Assembly: GCA_963659735.1 (NCBI GenBank)
Contig: CAVKUP010000002.1
Coordinates: forward strand, 1 to 55,140
DNA length: 55,140 bases
Direction of reading: 5' to 3'
DNA from: a bacterium
GTDB lineage: Bacteria > Bacillota_I > Bacilli_A > RF39 > UBA660
The position numbers and the translations under genes are program-made. Shown one piece after another: positions 7,494 to 49,492 of this stretch. The notes under the pieces were generated by a model. That model ran no database searches. It was given only the letters and a program-made list of their open reading frames with translations, and was not told the DNA's origin. Positions within the stretch are counted from its first letter, which is position 1. Each line of letters starts with the position of its first letter.

Positions 7494-7961
7494 TTATTTC
7501 CAATGTATTGTAGCATCTTCTGCACCCCATGGAAAGCCTGATAATGTTCCTGTGTCGGATGTTTTAATATAGAATATTATTCCATCATTTTCTTGAAATG
7601 CATCCGATGAAATTTCTATTATATTTGATTGTATTGTTATGTTTACTAATGATTTATCTTTAAAGGCTGCAGGACCTATGGTGTCTACTAATTTACCATT
7701 AATTACCGTTGGTATAAAAACTGTTTTATCACAATCTATACTATAATCGGTTATTGTGATGTTCCCATTGGAATTTGATGTATATGTAAAGCAAGATGTA
7801 TCAGTTGTTAGATTTTGTACATCATCTAAGGCACTTTCTTTTATTTTATCGTTGCTTAATTTATGGCTTGATAATATTGATACCGTTGATGCTACTAAAG
7901 CCAAAAAAACTGATAGTATTCCATAAAGAAGAGCGGAAGAAACAAAGCCATTTTTTTTCAT
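7494..7961 (-). CDS. Small exported or anchored protein with a pilin-like N-terminus (no Glu at +5) and BspA-type leucine-rich repeats
   Basis: The N-terminus MKKNG-FVSSALLYGILSVFLALV resembles a prepilin leader plus hydrophobic helix. The C-terminal half reads FIPTVINGKLVDTIGPAAFKDKSLVNITIQSNIIEISSDAFQ, which fits the LRR_5/BspA repeat pattern. Confidence 0.5.
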   Translation of the reverse strand: MKKNGFVSSALLYGILSVFLALVASTVSILSSHKLSNDKIKESALDDVQNLTTDTSCFTYTSNSNGNITITDYSIDCDKTVFIPTVINGKLVDTIGPAAFKDKSLVNITIQSNIIEISSDAFQENDGIIFYIKTSDTGTLSGFPWGAEDATIHWK

Positions 7962-17236: not shown

Positions 17237-17261
17237 ACAAAAAAAGATACATTTGTATCTT
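17237..17261 (-). terminator. Rho-independent terminator directly after the pilin gene
   Basis: On the minus strand AAGATAC-aaat-GTATCTT is followed by TTTTTTTG. The stem overlaps the pilin stop codon. Confidence 0.7.
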
Positions 17262-17655
17262 AGCATGCATTTTTTGAATATTCATAACTATATTTATTTT
17301 GAGAAGTATAGGTAACGATAACACTTCCATTAAAAATTTCAAAATTTTCATCTTCTTTAGTACTTCCCTTTTTATATTTTGGGTTTTTTATATCTTCGGT
17401 TGTTAATAATCCTACTTTTTTCATTTCACTTACTGATAAACAATAAAAGCTACCTTCAGTTTGACTTGGAAGTTTTAAAGAATTTTTTGACATGTATGTG
17501 CGAGCTACATTTTCAATTGTTTTTACCTGTTCATTATATGCTTTTTCTTTTGAAAAATTTAAAGCACTATTTACTGATGGAATAGCTATTAAAGCTATCA
17601 AACCAATTAAAACTATTACACCTAAAAGTTCAATTAAGGTAAACCCTTTTTTCAT
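17260..17655 (-). CDS. Type IV pilin / pseudopilin (prepilin-type N-terminal methylation domain)
   Basis: MKKG-FTLIELLGVIVLIGLIALIAIP is a canonical class III leader with Glu at +5. I prefer the ATG at 17655 behind an AGGTGG RBS. The mature protein would be about 126 aa. Confidence 0.85.
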   Translation of the reverse strand: MKKGFTLIELLGVIVLIGLIALIAIPSVNSALNFSKEKAYNEQVKTIENVARTYMSKNSLKLPSQTEGSFYCLSVSEMKKVGLLTTEDIKNPKYKKGSTKEDENFEIFNGSVIVTYTSQNKYSYEYSKNAC

Positions 17656-17672
17656 TTCTACCACCTATTTTA

Positions 17673-17701
17673 ATTATAAAGTTTTACCTATTTATTGTCA
17701 A
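17673..17701 (-). promoter_or_regulatory. Consensus sigma-A-type promoter for the pilin gene
   Basis: The minus strand reads TTGACA, a 17-nt spacer, then TATAAT. The -35 box overlaps the stop codon of the sigma-factor gene. Confidence 0.6.
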
Positions 17702-18345
17702 TTATATGTCTTTTTTAATTTTGTTAAAACCTTCTTTTCACGTCTTGAAATGTCAACTTGAGTAAGTCCTAATAAATTTGAAAGTTCAGTTTGCGTTTTA
17801 TCATTAAAATACCTTTCGTACATTATAGTTCTTTCAGGTTCTTCCAATGATTCCAATTCGTTTTTTAAAAATATATAATCATTCAAATCAATATCGTTTT
17901 GTGCAATCAAATCATAAAAATTTAAATTTTCATAAATTTCATTTTCTAGGCTATAGCCATCTGACTTATAATTTTCAATTCTTTCTAAATCACTTATAGG
18001 AATATTTAAAAATTCACTTAACTGTTTAATTGAAGGTTCGCACATATATTCTTGTTGTAATAAGCTTTTTGCTTTTTCTAATTTAGTTTTAAGAGATACT
18101 AAATCTTTATTAAGTTTTATTGTATGATTTTCTCTTATAAATTTCATAATTGATCCAAATATATATGGATATGCATATGTTGTAAATTTGGTTTGTCTTT
18201 GGGCATCAAAATTATAATATGCCTCTACCATTCCAAGACATCCTGCCTGAAATAAATCTTCTTTTATATCATTTCTATTAATTTTTTTAATAATACTATA
18301 TATTAAATTTTGATTTTCAATAATTAAATTTTCTAATGAATCCAT
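17698..18345 (-). CDS. Group 3 sigma-70 family factor, SigF/SigG/SigB-like
   Basis: DLFQAGCLGMVEAYYNFD, FTTYAYPYIFGSIMKFIREN and RYFNDKTQTELSNLLGLTQVDISRREKKVL align, from memory, with B. subtilis SigF regions 2-4. 215 aa. Confidence 0.8.
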   Translation of the reverse strand: MDSLENLIIENQNLIYSIIKKINRNDIKEDLFQAGCLGMVEAYYNFDAQRQTKFTTYAYPYIFGSIMKFIRENHTIKLNKDLVSLKTKLEKAKSLLQQEYMCEPSIKQLSEFLNIPISDLERIENYKSDGYSLENEIYENLNFYDLIAQNDIDLNDYIFLKNELESLEEPERTIMYERYFNDKTQTELSNLLGLTQVDISRREKKVLTKLKKTYN

Positions 18346-30613: not shown

Positions 30614-31702
30614 TTAAGCCACTAGCCGGTATGGAACATTGGCCGTTCCTTTACCTTTTAGATTAATGTCAGAGGATAAGTAAAATACTGGAAGTGTACT
30701 AATAGTTTCCAAAGGTGTGAAAACTTCGAATTTGCCATCATAGCTAATATGATACACGTGACAATTAAAATAATAAGAATTTGGTGAAATTGTTAATAAC
30801 CAATTAAAGTTAATAGAATTAAATATCCAATTGGTTGCTTTACATGTGGTATAATTTGTATTGTTTAGACTAAATGAACCACACTGCTCTACATTTGTAT
30901 TTGTTTTTATGTAATCGCTTATTGTCATTAATCCTATTTTCCCTTTCCATTTATATGTTTGTTCTTGAGCTACTGTATTTGCTAGATTTGTTTCACCCAT
31001 TTGAACTAATCCTACATTAAATATATGATTTGTTATTTTATTTTGAACATCTGTAGACAATGTATTTAACCATGTACTATTTAAATATGTATTCATATAT
31101 GCCTCTTTTTCTGGTAGATTATATAAGGTAGTTCCTTCTATTACTTTGGGCATTTGTGTTATATTGTTTCCTGATGAATCTAACATAGTTGTCCTGCTTC
31201 CCCATATGTTACAACCATAATATTCTGATTCAGTTCCATTATTTCGGTAACAATAATCTGTAGATATATTTGTGTATCTTGTTCCAGCAACAGAATTTCT
31301 ATCCGTAACTCCTGATATACTCGATATATATCCTAAATCAAAAGGAATTCCTACGACACCTCCATTTTTTATTACTTTGAGAGTTCCATCTGATTCTATG
31401 GATATTATTCTATATATATCATTGTCTAATTTTATATAATTATTAGGTGTTTTCCCTTTATATATGTACCTTCCCGTTTCTGTATCATCTACATATAATC
31501 CATCTCCAGAAGTTACCACGGTTTTAATTAAATCATTAATTTTCATTTCCTTCTGAACAATATTCCCTTTAGCTTTTAAAGTAATATTAGTTTGAAACGC
31601 AGCATATCCAACAGATAAAAATAGTACTAAAAAAATCGATAAAGTTGTAATTATTTTCTTTTGTCTCTTATCTTTTCTTTTTAATCTTCTTCTCATATTC
31701 AT
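30614..31702 (-). CDS. Membrane-anchored or secreted protein carrying the same Cys-rich C-terminal domain as the 487-aa prepilin
   Basis: Basic N-terminus plus one hydrophobic helix (KKIITTLSIFLVLFLSVGYAAFQTNITLKAKGNI), with no G-F-x-x-x-E prepilin motif. Residues ~60-362 align with residues ~190-487 of ORF 40960-42423, including an identical 44-aa block. Confidence 0.65.
   Translation of the reverse strand: MNMRRRLKRKDKRQKKIITTLSIFLVLFLSVGYAAFQTNITLKAKGNIVQKEMKINDLIKTVVTSGDGLYVDDTETGRYIYKGKTPNNYIKLDNDIYRIISIESDGTLKVIKNGGVVGIPFDLGYISSISGVTDRNSVAGTRYTNISTDYCYRNNGTESEYYGCNIWGSRTTMLDSSGNNITQMPKVIEGTTLYNLPEKEAYMNTYLNSTWLNTLSTDVQNKITNHIFNVGLVQMGETNLANTVAQEQTYKWKGKIGLMTISDYIKTNTNVEQCGSFSLNNTNYTTCKATNWIFNSINFNWLLTISPNSYYFNCHVYHISYDGKFEVFTPLETISTLPVFYLSSDINLKGKGTANVPYRLVA
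31158..31282. repeat. 125-bp block identical to 41522-41646
   Basis: Base-by-base comparison of gttatattgtttcctgatgaatc...gtgtatcttgt in both loci. The flanking sequence is much more diverged. Confidence 0.85.
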
Positions 31703-39283: not shown

Positions 39284-40255
39284 ATGAAAAAAATCACAAG
39301 CATAATAATTATGATAATATTAATTTTTATTGGTTTTGAAATATTAACCGAATCAGAAAGTATCTTAAATTCAGTTAATTTTTCTCTAAACATCTTTAAA
39401 AATAATATTTTCCCTTCCCTATTTCCATTTTTTGTTTTATCTAACCTATTAATAAAATGTGGACTTCCAGAATTTATGGGATGTCTATTTAAAAACATAA
39501 TGAATAAACTATTTAAAATAAAAGGAATAACAGCATTCATATTCTTTATGAGCATCCTATCAGGAAATCCCTCAAATGCGAAATATACAAAAGAACTTTA
39601 TTTAGAAGGAAAAATAAATAAATACGAAGCAACAAAAATACTATGTTTTACCTGCTTTACTAATCCCTTATTCATACTAGGAACAATATCATATACATTT
39701 TTAAATAATAAAGAAGTTGGTATTCTCATATTAATATGCCATTACCTAGGAAATATAATAATAGGACTAGCATTAAGAAACTACCATCCGTCAAAAGAAG
39801 AAAAAGAAAAAACAAGCCTTAAAAAAGCAATACGTGCAATGCACCAAAAAAGAATCAGTAATAAAGAAAGTTTTGGTATTATCATTACTAATTCTTTAAT
39901 TAATAGTATTAATACATTACTTTTAATATTAGGCGTCATCACCATGTGTTTAGTATTAACCACAATAATCGATAATAACCTAAATTTAAATAGTATATTT
40001 CAAAGTACTTTAAATGGTTTTGTTGAAATAACTCAAGGATTAAAATATATAAGCCTTGAACAAATACCATTAAAAATTAAAGCCGTATTAACTGTAATGA
40101 TATTATCATTCTCAGGTTTCAGTATCCATATTCAAATCATGAGCATCCTATCAGATACAGATATAAAATACCTACCATTTTTGTGCTCTAGAATATCCCA
40201 TGCCTTAATATCTTCATTATTAATGTTTTTACTATTTGATATATGTATACTATAA
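39284..40255 (+). CDS. Sporulation integral membrane protein YlbJ-like (nucleoside-recognition-domain family)
   Basis: Polytopic, 323 aa. Its position next to a ylbL-like gene matches Bacillus. Confidence 0.65.
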   Translation: MKKITSIIIMIILIFIGFEILTESESILNSVNFSLNIFKNNIFPSLFPFFVLSNLLIKCGLPEFMGCLFKNIMNKLFKIKGITAFIFFMSILSGNPSNAKYTKELYLEGKINKYEATKILCFTCFTNPLFILGTISYTFLNNKEVGILILICHYLGNIIIGLALRNYHPSKEEKEKTSLKKAIRAMHQKRISNKESFGIIITNSLINSINTLLLILGVITMCLVLTTIIDNNLNLNSIFQSTLNGFVEITQGLKYISLEQIPLKIKAVLTVMILSFSGFSIHIQIMSILSDTDIKYLPFLCSRISHALISSLLMFLLFDICIL

Positions 40256-40693
40256 AATATTATAATAATAAACCGCTTTATATTCATATGGCTTATTTAA
40301 ATTATCACTTTTTAAATTAAACTTTACCTTTAAAAAACAGTTTTTTCCTTCACAATTATTATTTAATTCATAATCAGATATACCAACACCATCTGGTAAA
40401 TTAAAATTTTGATTATTAATAGTAACACTATTATTATTAATAACTATTTTACTTTCATCACTAATTGTACAAGTATTATTACTACAACTAATGACCTGTG
40501 AATTTGAAGATAAATTAACTTTTATATTTTTTGAAATAACTCCCATTTTTTCTTGTATTGTTGTCTTTAAAGAAGTTTCTATGAAAACATCTTTTATTTC
40601 TATAAGAACTTCAAAAAGAAAAACAACAATAACCATTGTTAAAGCAAATGAAGCTATTAATTCAACAACAGTAAATCCTTTATTGTTTTTCAT
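40250..40693 (-). CDS. Type IV pilin / pseudopilin, 147 aa
   Basis: MKNNKG-FTVVELIASFALTMVIVVFLF is a canonical prepilin leader with Glu at +5. AAGGAGG RBS. Confidence 0.8.
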   Translation of the reverse strand: MKNNKGFTVVELIASFALTMVIVVFLFEVLIEIKDVFIETSLKTTIQEKMGVISKNIKVNLSSNSQVISCSNNTCTISDESKIVINNNSVTINNQNFNLPDGVGISDYELNNNCEGKNCFLKVKFNLKSDNLNKPYEYKAVYYYNIL

Positions 40694-40761
40694 AATCTAC
40701 CTCCTTAATTATATAGATTAAAGCTAATTTCTTCTGTAAAAAAGATAACATTATAGCTAAA

Positions 40762-40789
40762 ATTGACACAAAAGTAACTAAAACTATAA
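40762..40789 (+). promoter_or_regulatory. Orphan consensus promoter (TTGACA-16-TATAAT) pointing into the GC-rich element
   Basis: Exact hexamers at 40762-40767 and 40784-40789. No plus-strand ORF follows. Confidence 0.5.
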
Positions 40790-40796
40790 TCAAATT

Positions 40797-40951
40797 TTAA
40801 CTTTAACGTTTTTATATTAGCATTTATAAAATGTGGATAAGACCTGTTCAGACTTGTGTTGCACTTGGGGCCTGAACTTTTGGCGAGGCATGCGCTTCGC
40901 TAGCCTCGCTCATGCACCTCCTTCGGAGGCTTACGAATGTTCTTCGTTTTT
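40797..40951 (+). ncRNA. Candidate structured small RNA or RNA element (strand uncertain)
   Basis: Four consecutive hairpins: 40845-40876, 40882-40908, 40916-40928, and 40932-40946 followed by TTTTTT. My hand count gives about 55% G+C over ~105 nt, in a very AT-rich background. Confidence 0.3.
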
Positions 40952-40959
40952 TATTAGTC

Positions 40960-42423
40960 TCAATTCAAAGTATATGGACTACCCTCAGTTCCTTCTCCTG
41001 TTAATGTGATATCAGATGACAGATAGAAAGCTGGAAAAACACCGTAAGTGTTGACCGCATCGGCACGACTATCCAAATCACCTTCACCGCCATAGACACC
41101 AAACACATCGCAAACATCTTCACCCGAAGGCGGTGTGATTGTCCAAAGTTTACCCTTCTTTGTCTTTGTTGAAGATATCCAATTATATGTGGTACTGTTG
41201 ATATAACAATTATAACTTTCCTCATATGAAAAAATACCATGTGTACAGTAGATTGAATCTGTACTTGCATTTACATAATCACTCACATTTATTAACCCTA
41301 CTTTACCTTTCCATTTATATGCTTTCTCTTGAGTTATTGTATTTGCTAATGTTCCTTCCAAAGCATGAACTAATCCCACATTAAACAAATGCGTTGCTAT
41401 TCTACTTTGAACAGTACTTGATAAACTATTATACCAATCATTATTTAAATATGTATTCAAATATGCTTCTTTTTCTGGTAGATTATATAAGGTAGTTCCT
41501 CCTACTTCTCTTGGCATTGTTGTTATATTGTTTCCTGATGAATCTAACATAGTTGTCCTGCTTCCCCATATGTTACAACCATAATATTCTGATTCAGTTC
41601 CATTATTTCGGTAACAATAATCTGTAGATATATTTGTGTATCTTGTCCCAGCAAGAGAACTTGCATTAGATTCAAATGCTCCATATCCTAAATCAAACGG
41701 CATATCTCCAATACTACCATTTTTGATTACTTTTAATGTTCCATCTGACTCTACTGCTATTATTCTATACATATCAGAACCTAAAGTAATGTAGTTATTT
41801 GGATTCCCTCCTTTATAAACACACCTTCCTGTTTCAGTAGTATCCTTATATAATCCATCACCTGATGTAACAGTATCATTATTACATAACTCAACACCCG
41901 TAATACTACTATTTTGTTTACTAGAATCATTCATTGCTACTGTCGCAAAAGTTCCATCATTAAATTCAGCAAGCAACCTTCCTTTATTTTCCACCTTAAC
42001 AGCTGATATTTTATTAATAAAATCACGCATAGATTGAGATATATTATCATCATCATTATTATTAACATAATTTTTTATATTCAATATATCAGAAGAAGTG
42101 TAAATTACTAATTTCGCATCCATAGCTTCTAATAGGTCATTACAAAATGTACTATAATTAACGTTTATTTGACAAGTTTCATCTTTATATATAATTGTAT
42201 AAGGCTTATCAGAAGAAGTTTCAATTTTAATATTATTAGTACTTATATAATTACTAAGGGAGCCTAAATTATAAATAGACTCAACATTATTATAACTGTA
42301 GGTTGTCTTATAATTTGTTACTACATTTCTAAATTGAACAAAAAGGAAAATTAAAATTGTCAAAACAAAAGTAGATACAACTAATGACTCAGCTAATAAA
42401 AATCCCCTATTATTTCTATTCAT
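40960..42423 (-). CDS. Large prepilin-type protein (487 aa) with a Cys-rich C-terminal globular domain
   Basis: MNRNNRG-FLLAESLVVSTFVLTILIFLF has Glu at +5. The C-terminal ~300 aa is paralogous to ORF 30614-31702. Confidence 0.75.
   Translation of the reverse strand: MNRNNRGFLLAESLVVSTFVLTILIFLFVQFRNVVTNYKTTYSYNNVESIYNLGSLSNYISTNNIKIETSSDKPYTIIYKDETCQINVNYSTFCNDLLEAMDAKLVIYTSSDILNIKNYVNNNDDDNISQSMRDFINKISAVKVENKGRLLAEFNDGTFATVAMNDSSKQNSSITGVELCNNDTVTSGDGLYKDTTETGRCVYKGGNPNNYITLGSDMYRIIAVESDGTLKVIKNGSIGDMPFDLGYGAFESNASSLAGTRYTNISTDYCYRNNGTESEYYGCNIWGSRTTMLDSSGNNITTMPREVGGTTLYNLPEKEAYLNTYLNNDWYNSLSSTVQSRIATHLFNVGLVHALEGTLANTITQEKAYKWKGKVGLINVSDYVNASTDSIYCTHGIFSYEESYNCYINSTTYNWISSTKTKKGKLWTITPPSGEDVCDVFGVYGGEGDLDSRADAVNTYGVFPAFYLSSDITLTGEGTEGSPYTLN
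41522..41646. repeat. 125-bp block identical to 31158-31282
   Basis: Base-by-base comparison. Confidence 0.85.
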
Positions 42424-42521
42424 AAAATTTTACTCCTTTTTCAATTGTTTTTATTCTGAATATATTATATAATAGATTAGGGATAAAATCTAGTCCTAAA
42501 AGAACAAAGGAGCTTGATAAA

Positions 42522-43847
42522 ATGATTAGAACATTTGATTTTGCAAAGATGCCAATAGTTGATATTATAAATGAAATATTTGTTGATTCTGCTAAAAGAA
42601 ATGCGAGTGATATTCACTTTGATCCATATGAAGAATATTTATTAATTAGAATTAGAATTGATGGTATTTTAATGGATTATGCGAAAGTACCTAACGAGCA
42701 CAGAGATTATTTAACTACTAGAATTAAAACAATATCTAGAATGAATATAACCGAATCAAGATTACCACAAGATGGCGCAATTAAAGATACAATAAACGGT
42801 GTTGATTTAGATTTGCGTGTTTCAGTATTACCTGTTAGTACAGGAGAAAAAATAGTTATTCGTATTTTAGATTATACAAGAAGTATGGCGGGATTAGAAG
42901 AATTAGGCTTTAATGATGAAAATTATAAAAAAATACTAGAAATGATTAGTGTCCCAAATGGTATTATTTTAGTTACAGGGGCAACTGGAAGTGGTAAAAG
43001 TACAACTGTATATTCTATGCTTCAATATTTAAATACATCAGAAACAAATATAATTACAGTTGAAGATCCAATTGAAATGGATATTAAAGGCATCAACCAA
43101 GTTCAAACAAATTCTAAAATAGGTTTAACCTTCGCAACAGCATTAAGATCTATATTAAGACAAGATCCAAACATCATAATGATTGGAGAAATACGTGATA
43201 CCGAAACAGCAAAAATAGCCGTCAGAGCGTCAATAACTGGACACCTCGTACTTTCTACATTACATACAAATACAGCCCTAAATACCATTGAAAGATTAAT
43301 TGATATGGATGTTCAAAGATATTTACTGGCATCCGCATTAGAAGGTGTTGTTTCACAAAAATTAGCAAGAAGTCTATGTGAACATTGCCGTACGTTAAGA
43401 AAAACAAGTGATTATGAAAAAGCTATTTTTAAAACAGTATTAGGAAAAGATGTCGATGAGATATACGATGCTGAAGGATGTGAACATTGTCATGATGGTT
43501 ACAAAGGACGTGTTGCCATTCATGAAGTTTTAAGAATAAATCAAAATATTCGTGATGAGTTAAGTAACAATGCTGATAAAGAAAAAATAAGACAATTAGT
43601 TTATGGCGGTAGTAATGTTATTACAATGTTACAAGATGGTTTACAAAAAGTAGTTGAAGGAAAAACTACATTTGCAGAAATTTTAAAATTGATTGAATTA
43701 GAAGACGATGATAAAATTAGTAACAACACTTCATTAAAAGAAGCTATCATGGAAACAAAAGAAGCTATGACTGCTAAAGAAAAACAAACAAGTGAATTTT
43801 TAGGTACTAAAAATATTTATTCTGCCGATGATGTTGAAGAATTATAA
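42522..43847 (+). CDS. GspE/PilB/ComGA-family secretion/pilus assembly ATPase
   Basis: Walker A GATGSGKST, Asp box and Walker B (IIMIGEIRD), His box (TGHLVLSTLHTN), tetracysteine CEHC...CEHC. 441 aa with no N1 domain. Confidence 0.9.
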   Translation: MIRTFDFAKMPIVDIINEIFVDSAKRNASDIHFDPYEEYLLIRIRIDGILMDYAKVPNEHRDYLTTRIKTISRMNITESRLPQDGAIKDTINGVDLDLRVSVLPVSTGEKIVIRILDYTRSMAGLEELGFNDENYKKILEMISVPNGIILVTGATGSGKSTTVYSMLQYLNTSETNIITVEDPIEMDIKGINQVQTNSKIGLTFATALRSILRQDPNIIMIGEIRDTETAKIAVRASITGHLVLSTLHTNTALNTIERLIDMDVQRYLLASALEGVVSQKLARSLCEHCRTLRKTSDYEKAIFKTVLGKDVDEIYDAEGCEHCHDGYKGRVAIHEVLRINQNIRDELSNNADKEKIRQLVYGGSNVITMLQDGLQKVVEGKTTFAEILKLIELEDDDKISNNTSLKEAIMETKEAMTAKEKQTSEFLGTKNIYSADDVEEL

Positions 43848-46367: not shown

Positions 46368-47624
46368 TTAATTTTTCTTAACATTCATTTTTTTATCTCT
46401 ATAAATAATAACTCCTACACCACCAGCAATAATTACTAAACCTACGCCTAAAATAATTAAAGGAACACTGGCAGCAGTATTTGGAACATCAATTGTAGTT
46501 CCACAATCCCATGCACCATATAATGTCATATTATTATTTAAAGCAGTACCATCAGTCCATTTTCCAGTTAAATTATCTTTGGTATACCATCCATTAAACT
46601 TACAATTTTCTTGTCTTGTTGTTAATTCTTTTTCTTGGTTATATTTAGTACCTTTATCATAACAACTTGTTCCAGGTGTTGGATCAGTTAAGTTAGCATC
46701 TGGTTTTACATTACCAACTATAACATAATTAACGCAAACTTTAGGTTTATCAACTTTAGCAGTTAAACTAATTGATTTTGATAAATCAGTATTATCTGTA
46801 TATAAAACAGCTAATCTTTGATATGAAGTATCAGAAGGTTGATAAATATATGCTTTGGTACTAGTACCTTTTGCTGAAACATTTACTTTAATTGTAGTTG
46901 TTTGTCCTAATGCATTTGATGGAATTTTAACTAAGAACTTTTCACCTGCATTAAATGTAGTTTGAGTTTTTCCTGATGTACTTGTAACAATTGTACCAGT
47001 AGGTGCTCCTGTTACTTCAACTGAATAAGCCGTAGTACCAGTTAATGTTGTTGTAATTTCTTTTGAAACAAAGTAATTACCATCACTAGATAAATCCATA
47101 TTAGTATTACTTATACTTACGTCTAATGATGCCTGTTCGTTTGCTTTAGCTGTTTTTGCAGCATTTACCAAAGCTTTTATAGAATCTCTAAGTCCATATG
47201 GATCAGCAGAATTGGTTGTAAAATCAGCACTTAAACTACCACTTTGTCCAGTTTCAGCTAAATACCACCATAAAGCCGCTTGAGTAATGAACCTATCTTG
47301 ATCATTGTTTCCCTTTATTGATTTGTATGGATAACCATTTTCTAAAATATACCTGACACCATTGTCAGCTTCTTTAACTAATGAAACATTAGTTGTTTTT
47401 TCTGGCCATTTCTTTTCAACATCCATGCAATATGCAACTTTTCCATCGGATGTTCTAAATTTAGCCCATTTATAATTTTCTCCAATGTATGATACCATTA
47501 CTCCTTCTCTACTAATAGTAGGATTATTAGGAGCAGCATTTACCATTGGAATGCTAGTAACAGATAAAACTACAACTAACAAGAAAGTACAAATTATACT
47601 ATAAAATTTTTGAATTGTTTTCAT
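46368..47624 (-). CDS. Surface adhesin with thioester (TQxA) domain, Listeria-Bacteroides-type repeat and a VPNTA-type sorting signal
   Basis: Signal peptide. VAYCMD Cys plus FITQAALWWY (TQxA) pair. FNGWYTKDNLTGKWTDGTALNNNMTLYGAW repeat. C-terminal VPNTAAS, then a hydrophobic helix, then YRDKKMNVKKN. Confidence 0.75.
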   Translation of the reverse strand: MKTIQKFYSIICTFLLVVVLSVTSIPMVNAAPNNPTISREGVMVSYIGENYKWAKFRTSDGKVAYCMDVEKKWPEKTTNVSLVKEADNGVRYILENGYPYKSIKGNNDQDRFITQAALWWYLAETGQSGSLSADFTTNSADPYGLRDSIKALVNAAKTAKANEQASLDVSISNTNMDLSSDGNYFVSKEITTTLTGTTAYSVEVTGAPTGTIVTSTSGKTQTTFNAGEKFLVKIPSNALGQTTTIKVNVSAKGTSTKAYIYQPSDTSYQRLAVLYTDNTDLSKSISLTAKVDKPKVCVNYVIVGNVKPDANLTDPTPGTSCYDKGTKYNQEKELTTRQENCKFNGWYTKDNLTGKWTDGTALNNNMTLYGAWDCGTTIDVPNTAASVPLIILGVGLVIIAGGVGVIIYRDKKMNVKKN

Positions 47625-47641
47625 AACGATTCCCCCTTACT

Positions 47642-49492
47642 TTAACGTGTCCTTCCTTTAGGTTCATTTACTTTAGTTTCCTCACCATAAACTTTTCTAT
47701 TTATTTCTCTCATTATTGCATCTACTTGTTCATCAATGCTCATAGTTTTATTATGATTGACTTTAGCAATCTCATTCGCTTTTATATCTGCATTTTTTTC
47801 AAAATCAAACTCTTTTTCATCTTGAAGTTTTTCATCCTTCTTCTTCTTAGAGCTTGTAAGGCCTGCTGCAGCAATAGCTGCACCACCAAGTTCTAAAAGT
47901 CCTGGTAAATTAATAGTAGGATCACCAGTTTGAGGTAAAACCTCTTTGTGTTCCGGAGTTGGCTCTGGATCAGGTGTTGGCTCTGGAGTTGGCTCTGGAG
48001 TTGGCTCTGGCTCTGGCTCTGGATCTGGCTCTGGATCCGGAGTTGGTTTTGGATCTGGATCTGGATTAGGTTCATCCTTGCTAGGCTTTAAATCTGGCAC
48101 GGCATCTGGGTCTTCAGATGTTTTCTTGTTTTCTTCTAGCTGTTTAACATCACCAATTATAAAATCATAAGTAGTCAAAACATTGCCATCTTGATCCTTA
48201 ATTATGTAATAACCTCCATCAGTAGTTACAAAAGTATAATCACCAATAGTTGTAGTTCTTTCAGTATACCCTGCCTCTTTCATTTCATCTGTTGGTGCAT
48301 CTGGCAATATACCTGAAAAAACTTTAGCATCTGCAGGTAATTTCCCTTCTTTTTGTAATACTGAAATTAAGTCCTGTAGTTGAGCGTTTGAAAGCCCTAC
48401 ACCACCTTGTCCTAAGACGTAATATGTGCCATCTTGTGACTTCATAAGAATATATTGATTATCTTCAACGGTAACTTTATTATCAACAGTATCTTGTGAA
48501 TTTTGTTTTTCATCAACAGAATTTTCATTAGAATTAGTAGTTTCTGTTGTTTTTTCATAAGTTTGCTTATAAACAACATTTCCTTCAGCATCCATAATTA
48601 TAACATTACCATCTTGATAATCAACTGTATAACCAGTGTCAGCAATTTGAGCTTGTCCAGATGCTAAAATGTAATCCAAACTATATGCTGTTACATCAAT
48701 AGAATTAAGATCATAGTATTGACTTAACTGTTCGGCCAAATCAACAGTTTCTGGCACATTTCCAACAATTGTAAGATGACCATCTTTTTCAATAGCATCA
48801 TACCCATTAAAATGTCTAACATTAGAATTTTTAGATATTACTTGCTCTGCTGTTTCAGTTTGAACATCTTCTGATTTTGTTTGTTCTACCGTTTCAGTTT
48901 GAACATCTTCTGATTTTGTTTGTTCTACCGTTTCAGTTTGAACATCTTCTGATTTTGTTTGCTCTGCTGTTTCAGTTTGAACATCTTCTGATTTTGTTTG
49001 TTCTACCGTTTCAGTTTGAACATCTTCTGATTTTGTTTGCTCTACTGCCTCAGTTTGAACATCTTCTGATTTTACTTGCTCTGCTGTTTCAGTTTGAACA
49101 TCTTCTGATTTTACTTGCTCTACTGCCTCAGTTTGAACATCTTCTGATGTTGCTTGCTCTACTGCCTCAGTTTGAACATCTTCTGATATTGCTTGCTCTA
49201 CTGCCTCAGTTTGAATATCTTCTGATATTGCTTGCTCTACTGCTTCAGTTTGAATATCTTCTTGATTATCATATGTTTGTTCCGTAGAAGTTGGTGTTGT
49301 TGTATCTGCTATGTTATTTTCAGCTGCTCGTACAACATTTGGAGATAATAATGTACCAACAAACGCAACGGTCATGGCACCAATGCCAACTTTATTTTTA
49401 TTATCTTTTAAAAACTGTGATAATCTTTCTTTTATTGAAGCACCTTCAATATATGCCGAATTAATTTTTTCGTTAAACAATTTAAGTTTCAT
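47642..49492 (-). CDS. Repeat-containing LPQTG surface protein with an extended C-terminal tail
   Basis: Long signal peptide, eleven 13-aa acidic repeats, a P(E/D/T) spacer, LPQTG, a hydrophobic stretch, KKKK, then ~61 further residues. Confidence 0.75.
   Translation of the reverse strand: MKLKLFNEKINSAYIEGASIKERLSQFLKDNKNKVGIGAMTVAFVGTLLSPNVVRAAENNIADTTTPTSTEQTYDNQEDIQTEAVEQAISEDIQTEAVEQAISEDVQTEAVEQATSEDVQTEAVEQVKSEDVQTETAEQVKSEDVQTEAVEQTKSEDVQTETVEQTKSEDVQTETAEQTKSEDVQTETVEQTKSEDVQTETVEQTKSEDVQTETAEQVISKNSNVRHFNGYDAIEKDGHLTIVGNVPETVDLAEQLSQYYDLNSIDVTAYSLDYILASGQAQIADTGYTVDYQDGNVIIMDAEGNVVYKQTYEKTTETTNSNENSVDEKQNSQDTVDNKVTVEDNQYILMKSQDGTYYVLGQGGVGLSNAQLQDLISVLQKEGKLPADAKVFSGILPDAPTDEMKEAGYTERTTTIGDYTFVTTDGGYYIIKDQDGNVLTTYDFIIGDVKQLEENKKTSEDPDAVPDLKPSKDEPNPDPDPKPTPDPEPDPEPEPEPTPEPTPEPTPDPEPTPEHKEVLPQTGDPTINLPGLLELGGAAIAAAGLTSSKKKKDEKLQDEKEFDFEKNADIKANEIAKVNHNKTMSIDEQVDAIMREINRKVYGEETKVNEPKGRTR
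47939..48109. repeat. Low-complexity Pro-Glu/Asp/Thr-coding tract (wall-spanning spacer)
   Basis: ggctctgg/ggatctgg-type hexanucleotide periodicity. Encodes PDPDPKPTPDPEPDPEPEPEPTPEPTPEPTPDPEPTP. Confidence 0.8.
48824..49252. repeat. Eleven tandem 39-bp repeats (13-aa units, QTE[AT][VA]EQ[ATV][IKT]SED[IV])
   Basis: Read directly from the DNA and the translation. The last unit is degenerate. Confidence 0.9.

Follow-up and report, generated by a model that had tools for sequence, protein, structure and literature searches.

An ATPase and minor-pilin locus of an uncultured gut bacterium of the order RF39 is likely one half of a dispersed type IV pilus system with a modular, lectin-like minor pilin

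The subject of this report is a stretch of DNA of 55,140 nucleotides (hereafter the window; GenBank assembly GCA_963659735.1, contig CAVKUP010000002.1, positions 1 to 55,140) from a bacterium of the order RF39, in which two minor pilin genes diverge from a gene for an extension ATPase. We consider it likely that this locus, with its ATPase and minor pilins, forms one half of a type IV pilus (T4P) system that is complete but dispersed over the genome of a gut bacterium; the missing parts would be encoded elsewhere in the same genome and would belong to this system, rather than to a second complete system with an ATPase of its own. The longer of the two minor pilins carries a large C-terminal binding module with a predicted lectin-like fold. 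The order RF39 is prevalent in the gut, is uncultured and has reduced genomes; in the literature we found nothing published on the surface organelles of its members. What is new here is only the lineage (RF39) and the type of module, on a pilin of a known kind.

Both minor pilin genes are on the minus strand. The more distant from the ATPase gene (40250-40693) encodes the second minor pilin, of 147 residues, with the leader MKNNKG/FTVVELIASF (the slash marks the predicted cleavage site) and a Pfam N_methyl match of 21.5 bits (cut-off 21.2), and the nearer (40960-42423) encodes the modular minor pilin, of 487 residues, with the leader MNRNNRG/FLLAESLVV and a weak NCBIfam ComGD match at the N-terminus (E 1e-6, 29 bits vs. 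a cut-off of 70). Strong Shine-Dalgarno sites are present upstream of both genes, and the attributes of a class III prepilin (basic leader, Gly at -1, hydrophobic α1 helix, Glu at +5) are found in the window. The ATPase gene (42522-43847, plus strand; 441 residues) is separated from the 487-residue pilin gene by a 98-bp divergent spacer (42424-42521) that presumably holds divergent promoters, and is followed by convergent, unrelated genes for an FxLYD-domain protein, a 151-residue protein, yebC and rnc. Scans of the window for promoters (27 sites found vs. 32 expected) and for terminators were both uninformative. An earlier reading of this DNA, made without database searches (the sequence-only reading), had described two prepilins with Glu+5 leaders opposite a GspE-family ATPase with Walker A and tetracysteine motifs, and unrelated convergent genes after the ATPase; all of this held. 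The arrangement of pilin, pilin and ATPase is not a product of chance; it recurs in ~70 species-level genomes.

The ATPase matched Pfam T2SSE with 416 bits, as expected of an extension ATPase of the GspE/PilB/PilF kind, and has the Walker A motif (GATGSGKST, residue 153), Asp box (EDPIE, residue 181), Walker B motif (IIMIGEIRD, residue 218), His box (residue 239) and zinc-type tetracysteine (CEHC at residues 286 and 320). It is without an N1 domain, aligning to positions 107-484 of the GspE profile and 179-560 of the PilB profile, and it reached no equivalog cut-off in NCBIfam (GspE, 484.8 bits vs. 630; PilB, 464.8 vs. 676; ComGA, 257.9 vs. 300). Against solved structures in the PDB it scored 357 bits with EpsE, 336 with PilB and 318 with PilF vs. 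133 bits with PilT, so that by sequence the enzyme appears far closer to the extension ATPases than to the retraction ATPase. Its ratio of nonsynonymous to synonymous substitution rates (dN/dS) is 0.04-0.07 relative to the homologs in L002-L004 (L numbers denote loci or contigs of relatives, P numbers proteins of relatives), which makes it as constrained as yebC and rnc, and its exact sequence was found on one other short contig only. A C-terminal tail of ~50 residues extends past the T2SSE domain; in this tail (43720-43847, with homologs in L010-L019) a variable linker joins a conserved SL(S/K)EAIMETKEA segment to an acidic end that is likewise conserved (...DDVEEL in the window, ...ESLDI in relatives).

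The leaders of the two minor pilins are strikingly conserved. Gly-1, Phe+1 and Glu+5 are present in all 61 homologs of the 487-residue pilin and in 55 of the 59 homologs of the 147-residue pilin, the four exceptions having Ala at -1, and this conservation spans ~40 species of a clade that has no adjacent peptidase gene. The minor pilins as a whole evolve fast, with dN/dS of 0.43-0.52, which is still below neutrality. Because such conservation would be unexpected otherwise, we infer that these proteins are still processed by a prepilin peptidase and assembled into filaments, and the invariant Gly-1 may be read as an indirect sign of a prepilin peptidase in the genome.

A motif scan of the window turned up three canonical class III leaders and no more, the third belonging to a short pilin (17260-17655, minus strand; leader MKKG/FTLIELL; 131 residues from the ATG, otherwise counted as 134). 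This protein matched N_methyl with 24.8 bits and, below threshold in both cases, GspG (E 3e-10) and ComGC (E 5e-8, 33 bits vs. a cut-off of 75). No other protein of the window is as good a candidate for the major subunit, and in L091 a homolog lies directly after pilD. Of the two further pilin-like genes that the sequence-only reading had noted as scattered across the window this one is canonical, whereas the other (7494-7961, minus strand; 155 residues, KKNG/FVSSA) is not, having no Glu at +5 in the motif scan. The latter has BspA-type leucine-rich repeats (LRR; the LRR_5 match was below threshold) and no homolog near the pilus genes in the other loci, and its membership in the pilus system is uncertain. 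The short pilin gene sits between a sigF-like gene and spoVAC/AD/AE (17260-18345), and in Bacillus the corresponding place between sigF and spoVAC is taken by spoVAA/AB. A link of this pilin to sporulation (sigF-pilin-spoVA) was considered and rejected, the placement being kept only in the window and L030 (15338-16848) and not in distant relatives.

The source lineage belongs to the Bacilli, order RF39, family CAG-822, close to the genus CAG-822/Candidatus (Ca.) Coprosoma. Its close relatives are uncultured gut Bacilli with chromosomes of ~1.3-1.5 Mb and include, among species-representative genomes, Firmicutes bacterium CAG:822 and Ca. Coprosoma, the latter corresponding to GTDB genus CAG-822 in family CAG-822, order RF39 (PMC8035907). 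The gene order mutS - Lon/PDZ - ylbJ(+) - pilin(-) - pilin(-) - ATPase(+) was found in ~70 of 80 species-level loci. In 23 of these a Peptidase_A24 gene and a long T2SSF gene come directly after the ATPase gene and are read from the opposite strand, with a yqfQ-like gene next in line, and the same compact order is present on three further contigs, L090, L091 and L096, with pilD and pilC after the ATPase gene. The identity of PilC and PilD in the compact loci was established by Pfam (two T2SSF domains; A24_N_bact plus Peptidase_A24). From these compact loci it follows that the ancestral unit comprised pilin, pilin, ATPase, pilD, pilC and yqfQ.

In a tree of the ATPase the 48 species on the side of the window form one clade, in none of which are pilC or pilD found within 10 kb, and the sister clade is compact save for three isolated losses of the adjacency. 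In one of these exceptions, L076, the order ATPase-trmK-sigA-dnaG corresponds to the compact order minus pilD-pilC-yqfQ. As the species lacking the adjacency form a single clade, we conclude that one old rearrangement produced the arrangement seen in the window. A search of the protein database with the PilC of the lineage brought up a large PilC clade encoded in stand-alone loci of the order (FtsK-LexA-SNase-)BipA - yqfQ(-) - pilC - pilD, with no ATPase gene within 10 kb. Such loci were identified in genomes of the family CAG-822, one of them in Ca. Faecisoma merdavium (genus CAG-878, same family), and the gene order of L086 corresponds to compact L090 minus the ATPase-pilin-pilin-ylbJ-Lon block. 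Separated halves of the system therefore exist in this family. Two observations concern the loci with pilC: the PilC proteins of the lineage have 586-820 residues vs. the usual ~400 (L050:12148-14067, L052:12463-14763, P0023 and others), with a hydrophobic N-terminal extension of ~250-300 residues ahead of the first T2SSF repeat, and in compact and stand-alone loci alike pilC and the yqfQ-like gene invariably diverge.

The sequence-only reading had taken the locus for a minimal, non-standard architecture without a platform protein, and had proposed that synteny be compared across related genomes. That comparison, now made, does not bear the view out: sister genomes have pilD and pilC right after the ATPase, stand-alone yqfQ-pilC-pilD loci occur in the family, and a single rearrangement is common to 48 species. 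What does stand is the more limited statement that no platform or prepilin peptidase gene is nearby, and it extends to the whole window, in which neither a T2SSF or Peptidase_A24 gene nor a remnant of one was found by reading of open reading frames (ORFs), by phmmer with E. coli HofC, GspF and GspO, or by tblastn with the PilC and PilD of the lineage. Every type IV filament system has four core proteins, namely pilins, peptidase, extension ATPase and platform (PMC10191384). Since these four are shared by all the characterized systems, and since the leaders are invariant and the ATPase is constrained, pilC and pilD are very probably encoded elsewhere in this genome.

The 487-residue protein is for the most part not a pilin, as had been proposed earlier: a pilin module of ~175 residues (~41899-42423) is followed by a C-terminal DUF6273-like module of ~300 residues (residues ~185-487, ~40963-41871). 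Orthologs of this protein conserve the first ~170 residues and have total lengths of 150-919 residues across species; orthologs of the 147-residue pilin, the window copy of which is non-modular, have 132-572 residues, some with Laminin_G_3 or other modules. The C-terminal additions vary by species and comprise DUF6273 (10 of 32 proteins scanned), DUF285, ALK_LTK_GRD, Laminin_G_3 (concanavalin A (ConA)-like), ricin-B, BspA-type LRR and immunoglobulin-like modules. The 487-residue protein is a modular pilin in the sense of Raynaud et al. (2021), as it joins an N_methyl-type leader to a module that folds on its own and is found outside pilins too. Such pilins are widely distributed, numbering over 1,200 proteins in 264 architectures, and are believed to be adhesins exposed at the tip (PMC8179133).

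The module family comprises 1,133 representative clusters at E <= 1e-3, in which the module mostly lies behind a '...GYAAF(S/Q)T...' signal anchor; 10 of the best 150 representatives are fused to pilin modules, which are of two kinds. The window module matched Pfam DUF6273 over its second half only, with 18.5-19.5 bits (E ~1e-3), below the gathering threshold of 23.5, and 32 of 60 members of the module family match the same profile (best E 5.7e-09), from which, together with the matches of the module model to phage DUF6273 proteins described below, we regard the window module as a divergent relative of DUF6273 and not as a scored member. A single-sequence AlphaFold model of the whole 487-residue pilin was unusable (predicted local distance difference test score (pLDDT) 35.6), the N-terminal helix (residues 3-44) being its only confident part. 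The 303-residue module modelled from a 60-sequence alignment, however, gave a pLDDT of 92.6 and a predicted template modelling score (pTM) of 0.92. In a Foldseek comparison of this model with solved structures the sole significant match was 9qa6, the immunoglobulin A (IgA) peptidase of Thomasclavelia ramosa (E 5.6e-09 over 319 columns), and there were 17 matches to gut-phage proteins at E <= 1e-3, many of them named DUF6273, receptor-binding or tail; sequence identity in the structural matches was at most 17%, with TM-scores of 0.4-0.46. Sequence and profile searches of the module against the PDB returned nothing significant. The IgA peptidase has an enlarged C-type-lectin-like N-terminal domain of ~290 residues that is dispensable for catalysis and whose function is unknown (PMC12237041), and its size suggests that this domain is the part of 9qa6 matched by the model, for which sequence gave no confirmation.

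The module is also present in the window without a pilin. A paralog of 362 residues (30614-31702, minus strand) with a signal-anchor N-terminus ('...VGYAAFQTNITLKAKG') of the type that prevails in the module family carries the binding module with no pilin module (53% identity over 352 residues, E 1e-117), and a 126-bp tract of the pilin gene (41521-41646) is 100% identical to one in the paralog (31157-31282), with flanks of ~80% identity and a chance expectation of ~5e-10. This perfect tract points to gene conversion between the two genes. The event was probably recent and would have moved module sequence between two display formats, with the paralog as either donor or recipient. The end of the pilin gene differs from its surroundings in composition, as a G+C-rich patch (40800-41160, 44-50% vs. 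a background of 20-30%) covers its last ~65 codons and the spacer after it. This spacer between the two pilin genes is 266 bp in the window vs. 3-20 bp in other species, and a four-hairpin element is predicted at 40830-40965 on the minus strand (-47.7 kcal/mol, z = -5.9); no Rfam, phage or plasmid match was found for the patch and spacer.

A mechanism consistent with these data can be proposed. The ancestral compact module would have had the two minor pilin genes diverging from the ATPase gene, with pilD, pilC and yqfQ on the opposite strand after it. A single break between the ATPase gene and pilD at the base of the window's clade would have left the present half beside ylbJ, Lon/PDZ and mutS, and the pilC-pilD half would lie outside the 55 kb. 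PilD would cut the leaders between G and F, and the hexameric ATPase would act through PilC to drive polymerization of a short major pilin, the candidate gene being that at 17260-17655. Both minor pilins would prime assembly and come to lie at the filament tip, where the 487-residue pilin may present its 300-residue lectin-like (DUF6273-type) module as an adhesin. Swapping of the module between species, and gene conversion with the non-pilin paralog within the genome, would then produce varied binding specificity. The lectin-type modules on the minor pilins argue for adhesion as a main function. In this sense the adhesive part of the adhesive pseudopilus variant put forward in the sequence-only reading is plausible and gains structural support from the module model; the suggestion of an uncharacterized variant does not fare as well, since there is ample precedent both for pil genes that are scattered and for adhesive pilins that are modular (PMC8179133, PMC10191384).

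The alternative that fares best, although we think it unlikely, is that the genes encode the Com pseudopilus of a monoderm, with the ATPase as ComGA, the two minor pilins as ComGD/ComGF-like proteins and the short pilin as ComGC, and with capture of DNA for natural transformation, over adhesion, as the main function. The parts are certainly minimal, and the absence of PilMNO and PilT genes from all of ~90 loci is as in the Com pilus (PMC10191384). The matches to ComGD (E 1e-6) and ComGC (E 5e-8), weak as they are, point the same way, as does the host's position in the class Bacilli. In L086 and L087, moreover, pilD has comEA and comEC ~6 kb downstream of it. The machinery proteins speak against this identification: the ATPase scored 485 bits with GspE and 465 with PilB vs. 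258 with ComGA (cut-off 300), and the platform protein of the lineage (P0023, from a relative) scored 267 with GspF and 242 with PilC vs. 122.5 with ComGB (cut-off 240). Neither a ComGA equivalog, nor a ComGB equivalog in the relatives' platform, nor a comG operon with ComGC and ComGD-GG was found. There are also two locus-linked minor pilins vs. the four (ComGD-GG) of the Com pilus, and profile searches with both pilin modules against solved structures in the PDB returned nothing significant and no Com minor pilin. Finally, lectin and adhesin modules that vary by species suggest ligands other than DNA. Adhesion and DNA uptake are not mutually exclusive, and the pilus may have a role in DNA uptake as well.

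A true loss of pilC and pilD in the window's clade we regard as improbable. By this account the genus-level clade (CAG-822/Coprosoma) would have neither a PilC-family platform nor an A24 peptidase and would yet have conserved, over a long span of evolution, the ATPase under strong purifying selection and the pilin cleavage motifs; the ATPase, with or without the pilins, would work without a canonical platform or would have been recruited to another function. The idea draws on the absence of pilC and pilD from the window and from the 10 kb on either side of the ATPase gene in 48 related species, on L076, where pilD-pilC-yqfQ has been cut cleanly out of the compact order, and on the strong constraint on the ATPase even after loss of the adjacent pilins in one subclade. 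Set against it are the presence of a platform and a peptidase in every characterized type IV filament system (PMC10191384), the invariance of Gly-1/Phe+1/Glu+5 in ~40 species of the clade, which is expected only with an active peptidase and assembly, and the fact that the window is ~4% of a genome of ~1.4 Mb. Were the loss real, a type IV filament motor would be working with a non-homologous partner, or the ATPase would have a new role.

Several observations weigh against the dispersed but complete pilus that we favor. Among the matches listed there was no pilC or pilD from the window's genus-level clade, and no PilC on any of at least six complete chromosomes of 1.3-1.5 Mb that carry near-clade ATPases; the compact and stand-alone pilC-pilD loci of relatives likewise led to no near-clade MAG. 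The identity of PilC at the relevant divergence of the ATPase (70-74% identity) is 48-65% and could fall below cut-offs, so that the missing near-clade PilC is weak evidence, either against this pilus or for a loss. The clade with stand-alone pilC-pilD loci also appears to be a sister group and not the window's genus. Neither minor pilin remains at the locus in the subclade of L010-L016 and L019, where no prepilin ORF lies within 10 kb on either side and the ATPase is still intact (dN/dS 0.02-0.07); as the constrained ATPase is kept there, these two particular pilins are not what it depends on. The loss fits the two minor pilins being accessory subunits. Further, only two minor pilins are seen vs. 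four in many systems, and P0557, a relative of the short pilin at 17260-17655, is itself modular (601 residues with a DUF6273-like module), which is why the major-pilin role of the short pilin is put forward only as a candidate.

That the locus is a decaying remnant of a disused pilus in a reduced genome is scarcely credible, as the small genomes of the relatives (1.3-1.5 Mb), the scattered genes, the loss of both pilins in one subclade and the truncated DUF6273 fragments in L011, L012 and L046 are outweighed by intact ORFs with Shine-Dalgarno sites throughout, dN/dS values of 0.04-0.07 for the ATPase and 0.43-0.52 (below 1) for pilins with invariant leader motifs, and the retention of the arrangement through a deep radiation of 48 species.

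Other features of the window and of the related loci were noted. The window contains sporulation genes (spoVAC/AD/AE, a sigF-like gene and ylbJ), and the host is a monoderm spore-former. Downstream of rnc (46368-49492) is a pair of adhesin genes, one product having a thioester domain (TED) and a Listeria-Bacteroides repeat and the other, of 616 residues, combining ~13 tandem EDVQTE(A/T)VEQ repeats with a stalk rich in Pro, Glu and Thr and with a sortase-type motif, LPQTG; the latter diverges very fast, with 80% identity to its counterpart in L002 and 40-50% to those in L003 and L004. The ATPases of the subclade L010-L016 and L019 have gained a longer, N/Q-rich C-terminal tail. A Tad/Flp-type module is found upstream of mutS in L012 (1456-4268), L013 (567-3396), L014, L016, L019, L027 and L032, with a CpaF-like ATPase (442 residues), a ParA/TadZ-like protein and two TadE-like proteins, and is not at that position in the window. 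In Ca. Faecisoma merdavium (L097:4453-12725, DVJX01000085.1) an insert directly after pilD encodes three 215-residue paralogs, a SipW-like signal peptidase, a DUF5305 protein and a 1,328-residue DUF6273 protein, which suggests a second, SipW-dependent display route for the module family. The C-terminal part of FtsK is 82% identical to that of split-type contigs, a value not calibrated as a marker of relatedness, and the terminal Mur-ligase of L084, tried as an ortholog of the Mur-ligase adjacent to mutS in the window, gave no match. Contigs of this lineage (L002, L003, L028, L036, L039, L049, L057, L063 and L071) are filed in metagenome-assembled genomes (MAGs) labelled Sphaerochaetaceae, Oscillospiraceae, Muribaculaceae or Ignavibacteriales, probably by mis-binning or mislabelling in public records.

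If the dispersed pilus is as we propose, the family CAG-822 keeps a minimal PilB/PilC-type pilus with species-specific, lectin-like modules on its minor pilins, suggesting a route by which small-genome and probably partner-dependent bacteria may gain a hold on their hosts, on mucus or food particles, or on other microbes. The DUF6273-like module has three display settings, namely pili, SipW-type signals, behind which it lies, and phage receptor-binding proteins, and the structural match to the IgA peptidase gives this domain a binding role that can be tested. There is also a caution for annotation: where a MAG window shows an "orphan" ATPase with pilins, the simplest reading is that one part of a standard system has been rearranged.

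The locus can be compared with several known systems. A type II secretion system (T2SS) is not indicated, given the GspE score of 484.8 bits vs. the cut-off of 630, the monoderm host and the lack of a GspC, GspD, GspL or GspM gene in any locus. The Com pilus (ComGA, ComGB, ComC, ComGC-GG) has the same minimal parts list as the lineage (ATPase, platform, peptidase and pilins) and hosts in the Bacilli. It differs in that the ATPase and platform of the window's lineage do not reach the equivalog cut-offs of ComGA and ComGB and have better scores with GspE/PilB and GspF/PilC, that the window ATPase keeps the tetracysteine and the platform of the lineage has an N-terminal extension of ~250 residues, and that two modular locus-linked minor pilins, not four, are present without forming an operon with the ATPase. 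CofB of enterotoxigenic Escherichia coli (ETEC), TcpB of Vibrio cholerae, ComZ of Thermus and GspK of the T2SS also join a pilin module to additional C-terminal domains, are encoded beside their machinery, and are low-abundance subunits proposed to sit at the tip (PMC8179133). The folds of their extra domains are unrelated to the window module, however, their hosts are diderms with secretins, and no sequence similarity to them was detected. In the 9qa6 IgA peptidase and the phage DUF6273 proteins the domain is joined to a protease or a phage tail, whereas here it is joined to a pilin.

A close likeness is to the T4P of Streptococcus sanguinis, also of a monoderm host, which has the modular minor pilins PilB, with a von Willebrand factor A (vWA) module, and PilC, with a ConA-like lectin module (PMC8179133; PMC9934059). 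The window differs in that its module is DUF6273-like with a C-type-lectin-like fold, and not vWA or ConA, and in that its lineage has no visible PilT, PilMNO or second major pilin and has scattered genes, not one pil locus. Like the long pilin of the window, the S. sanguinis PilB and PilC proteins have a bulky binding module joined to a small pilin module with a class III leader, and relatives of the window carry Laminin_G_3 (ConA-like), ricin-B and other lectin-type modules at the orthologous position. By this likeness the expected role of the window system, which is known from its genes, would be tip-exposed adhesion.

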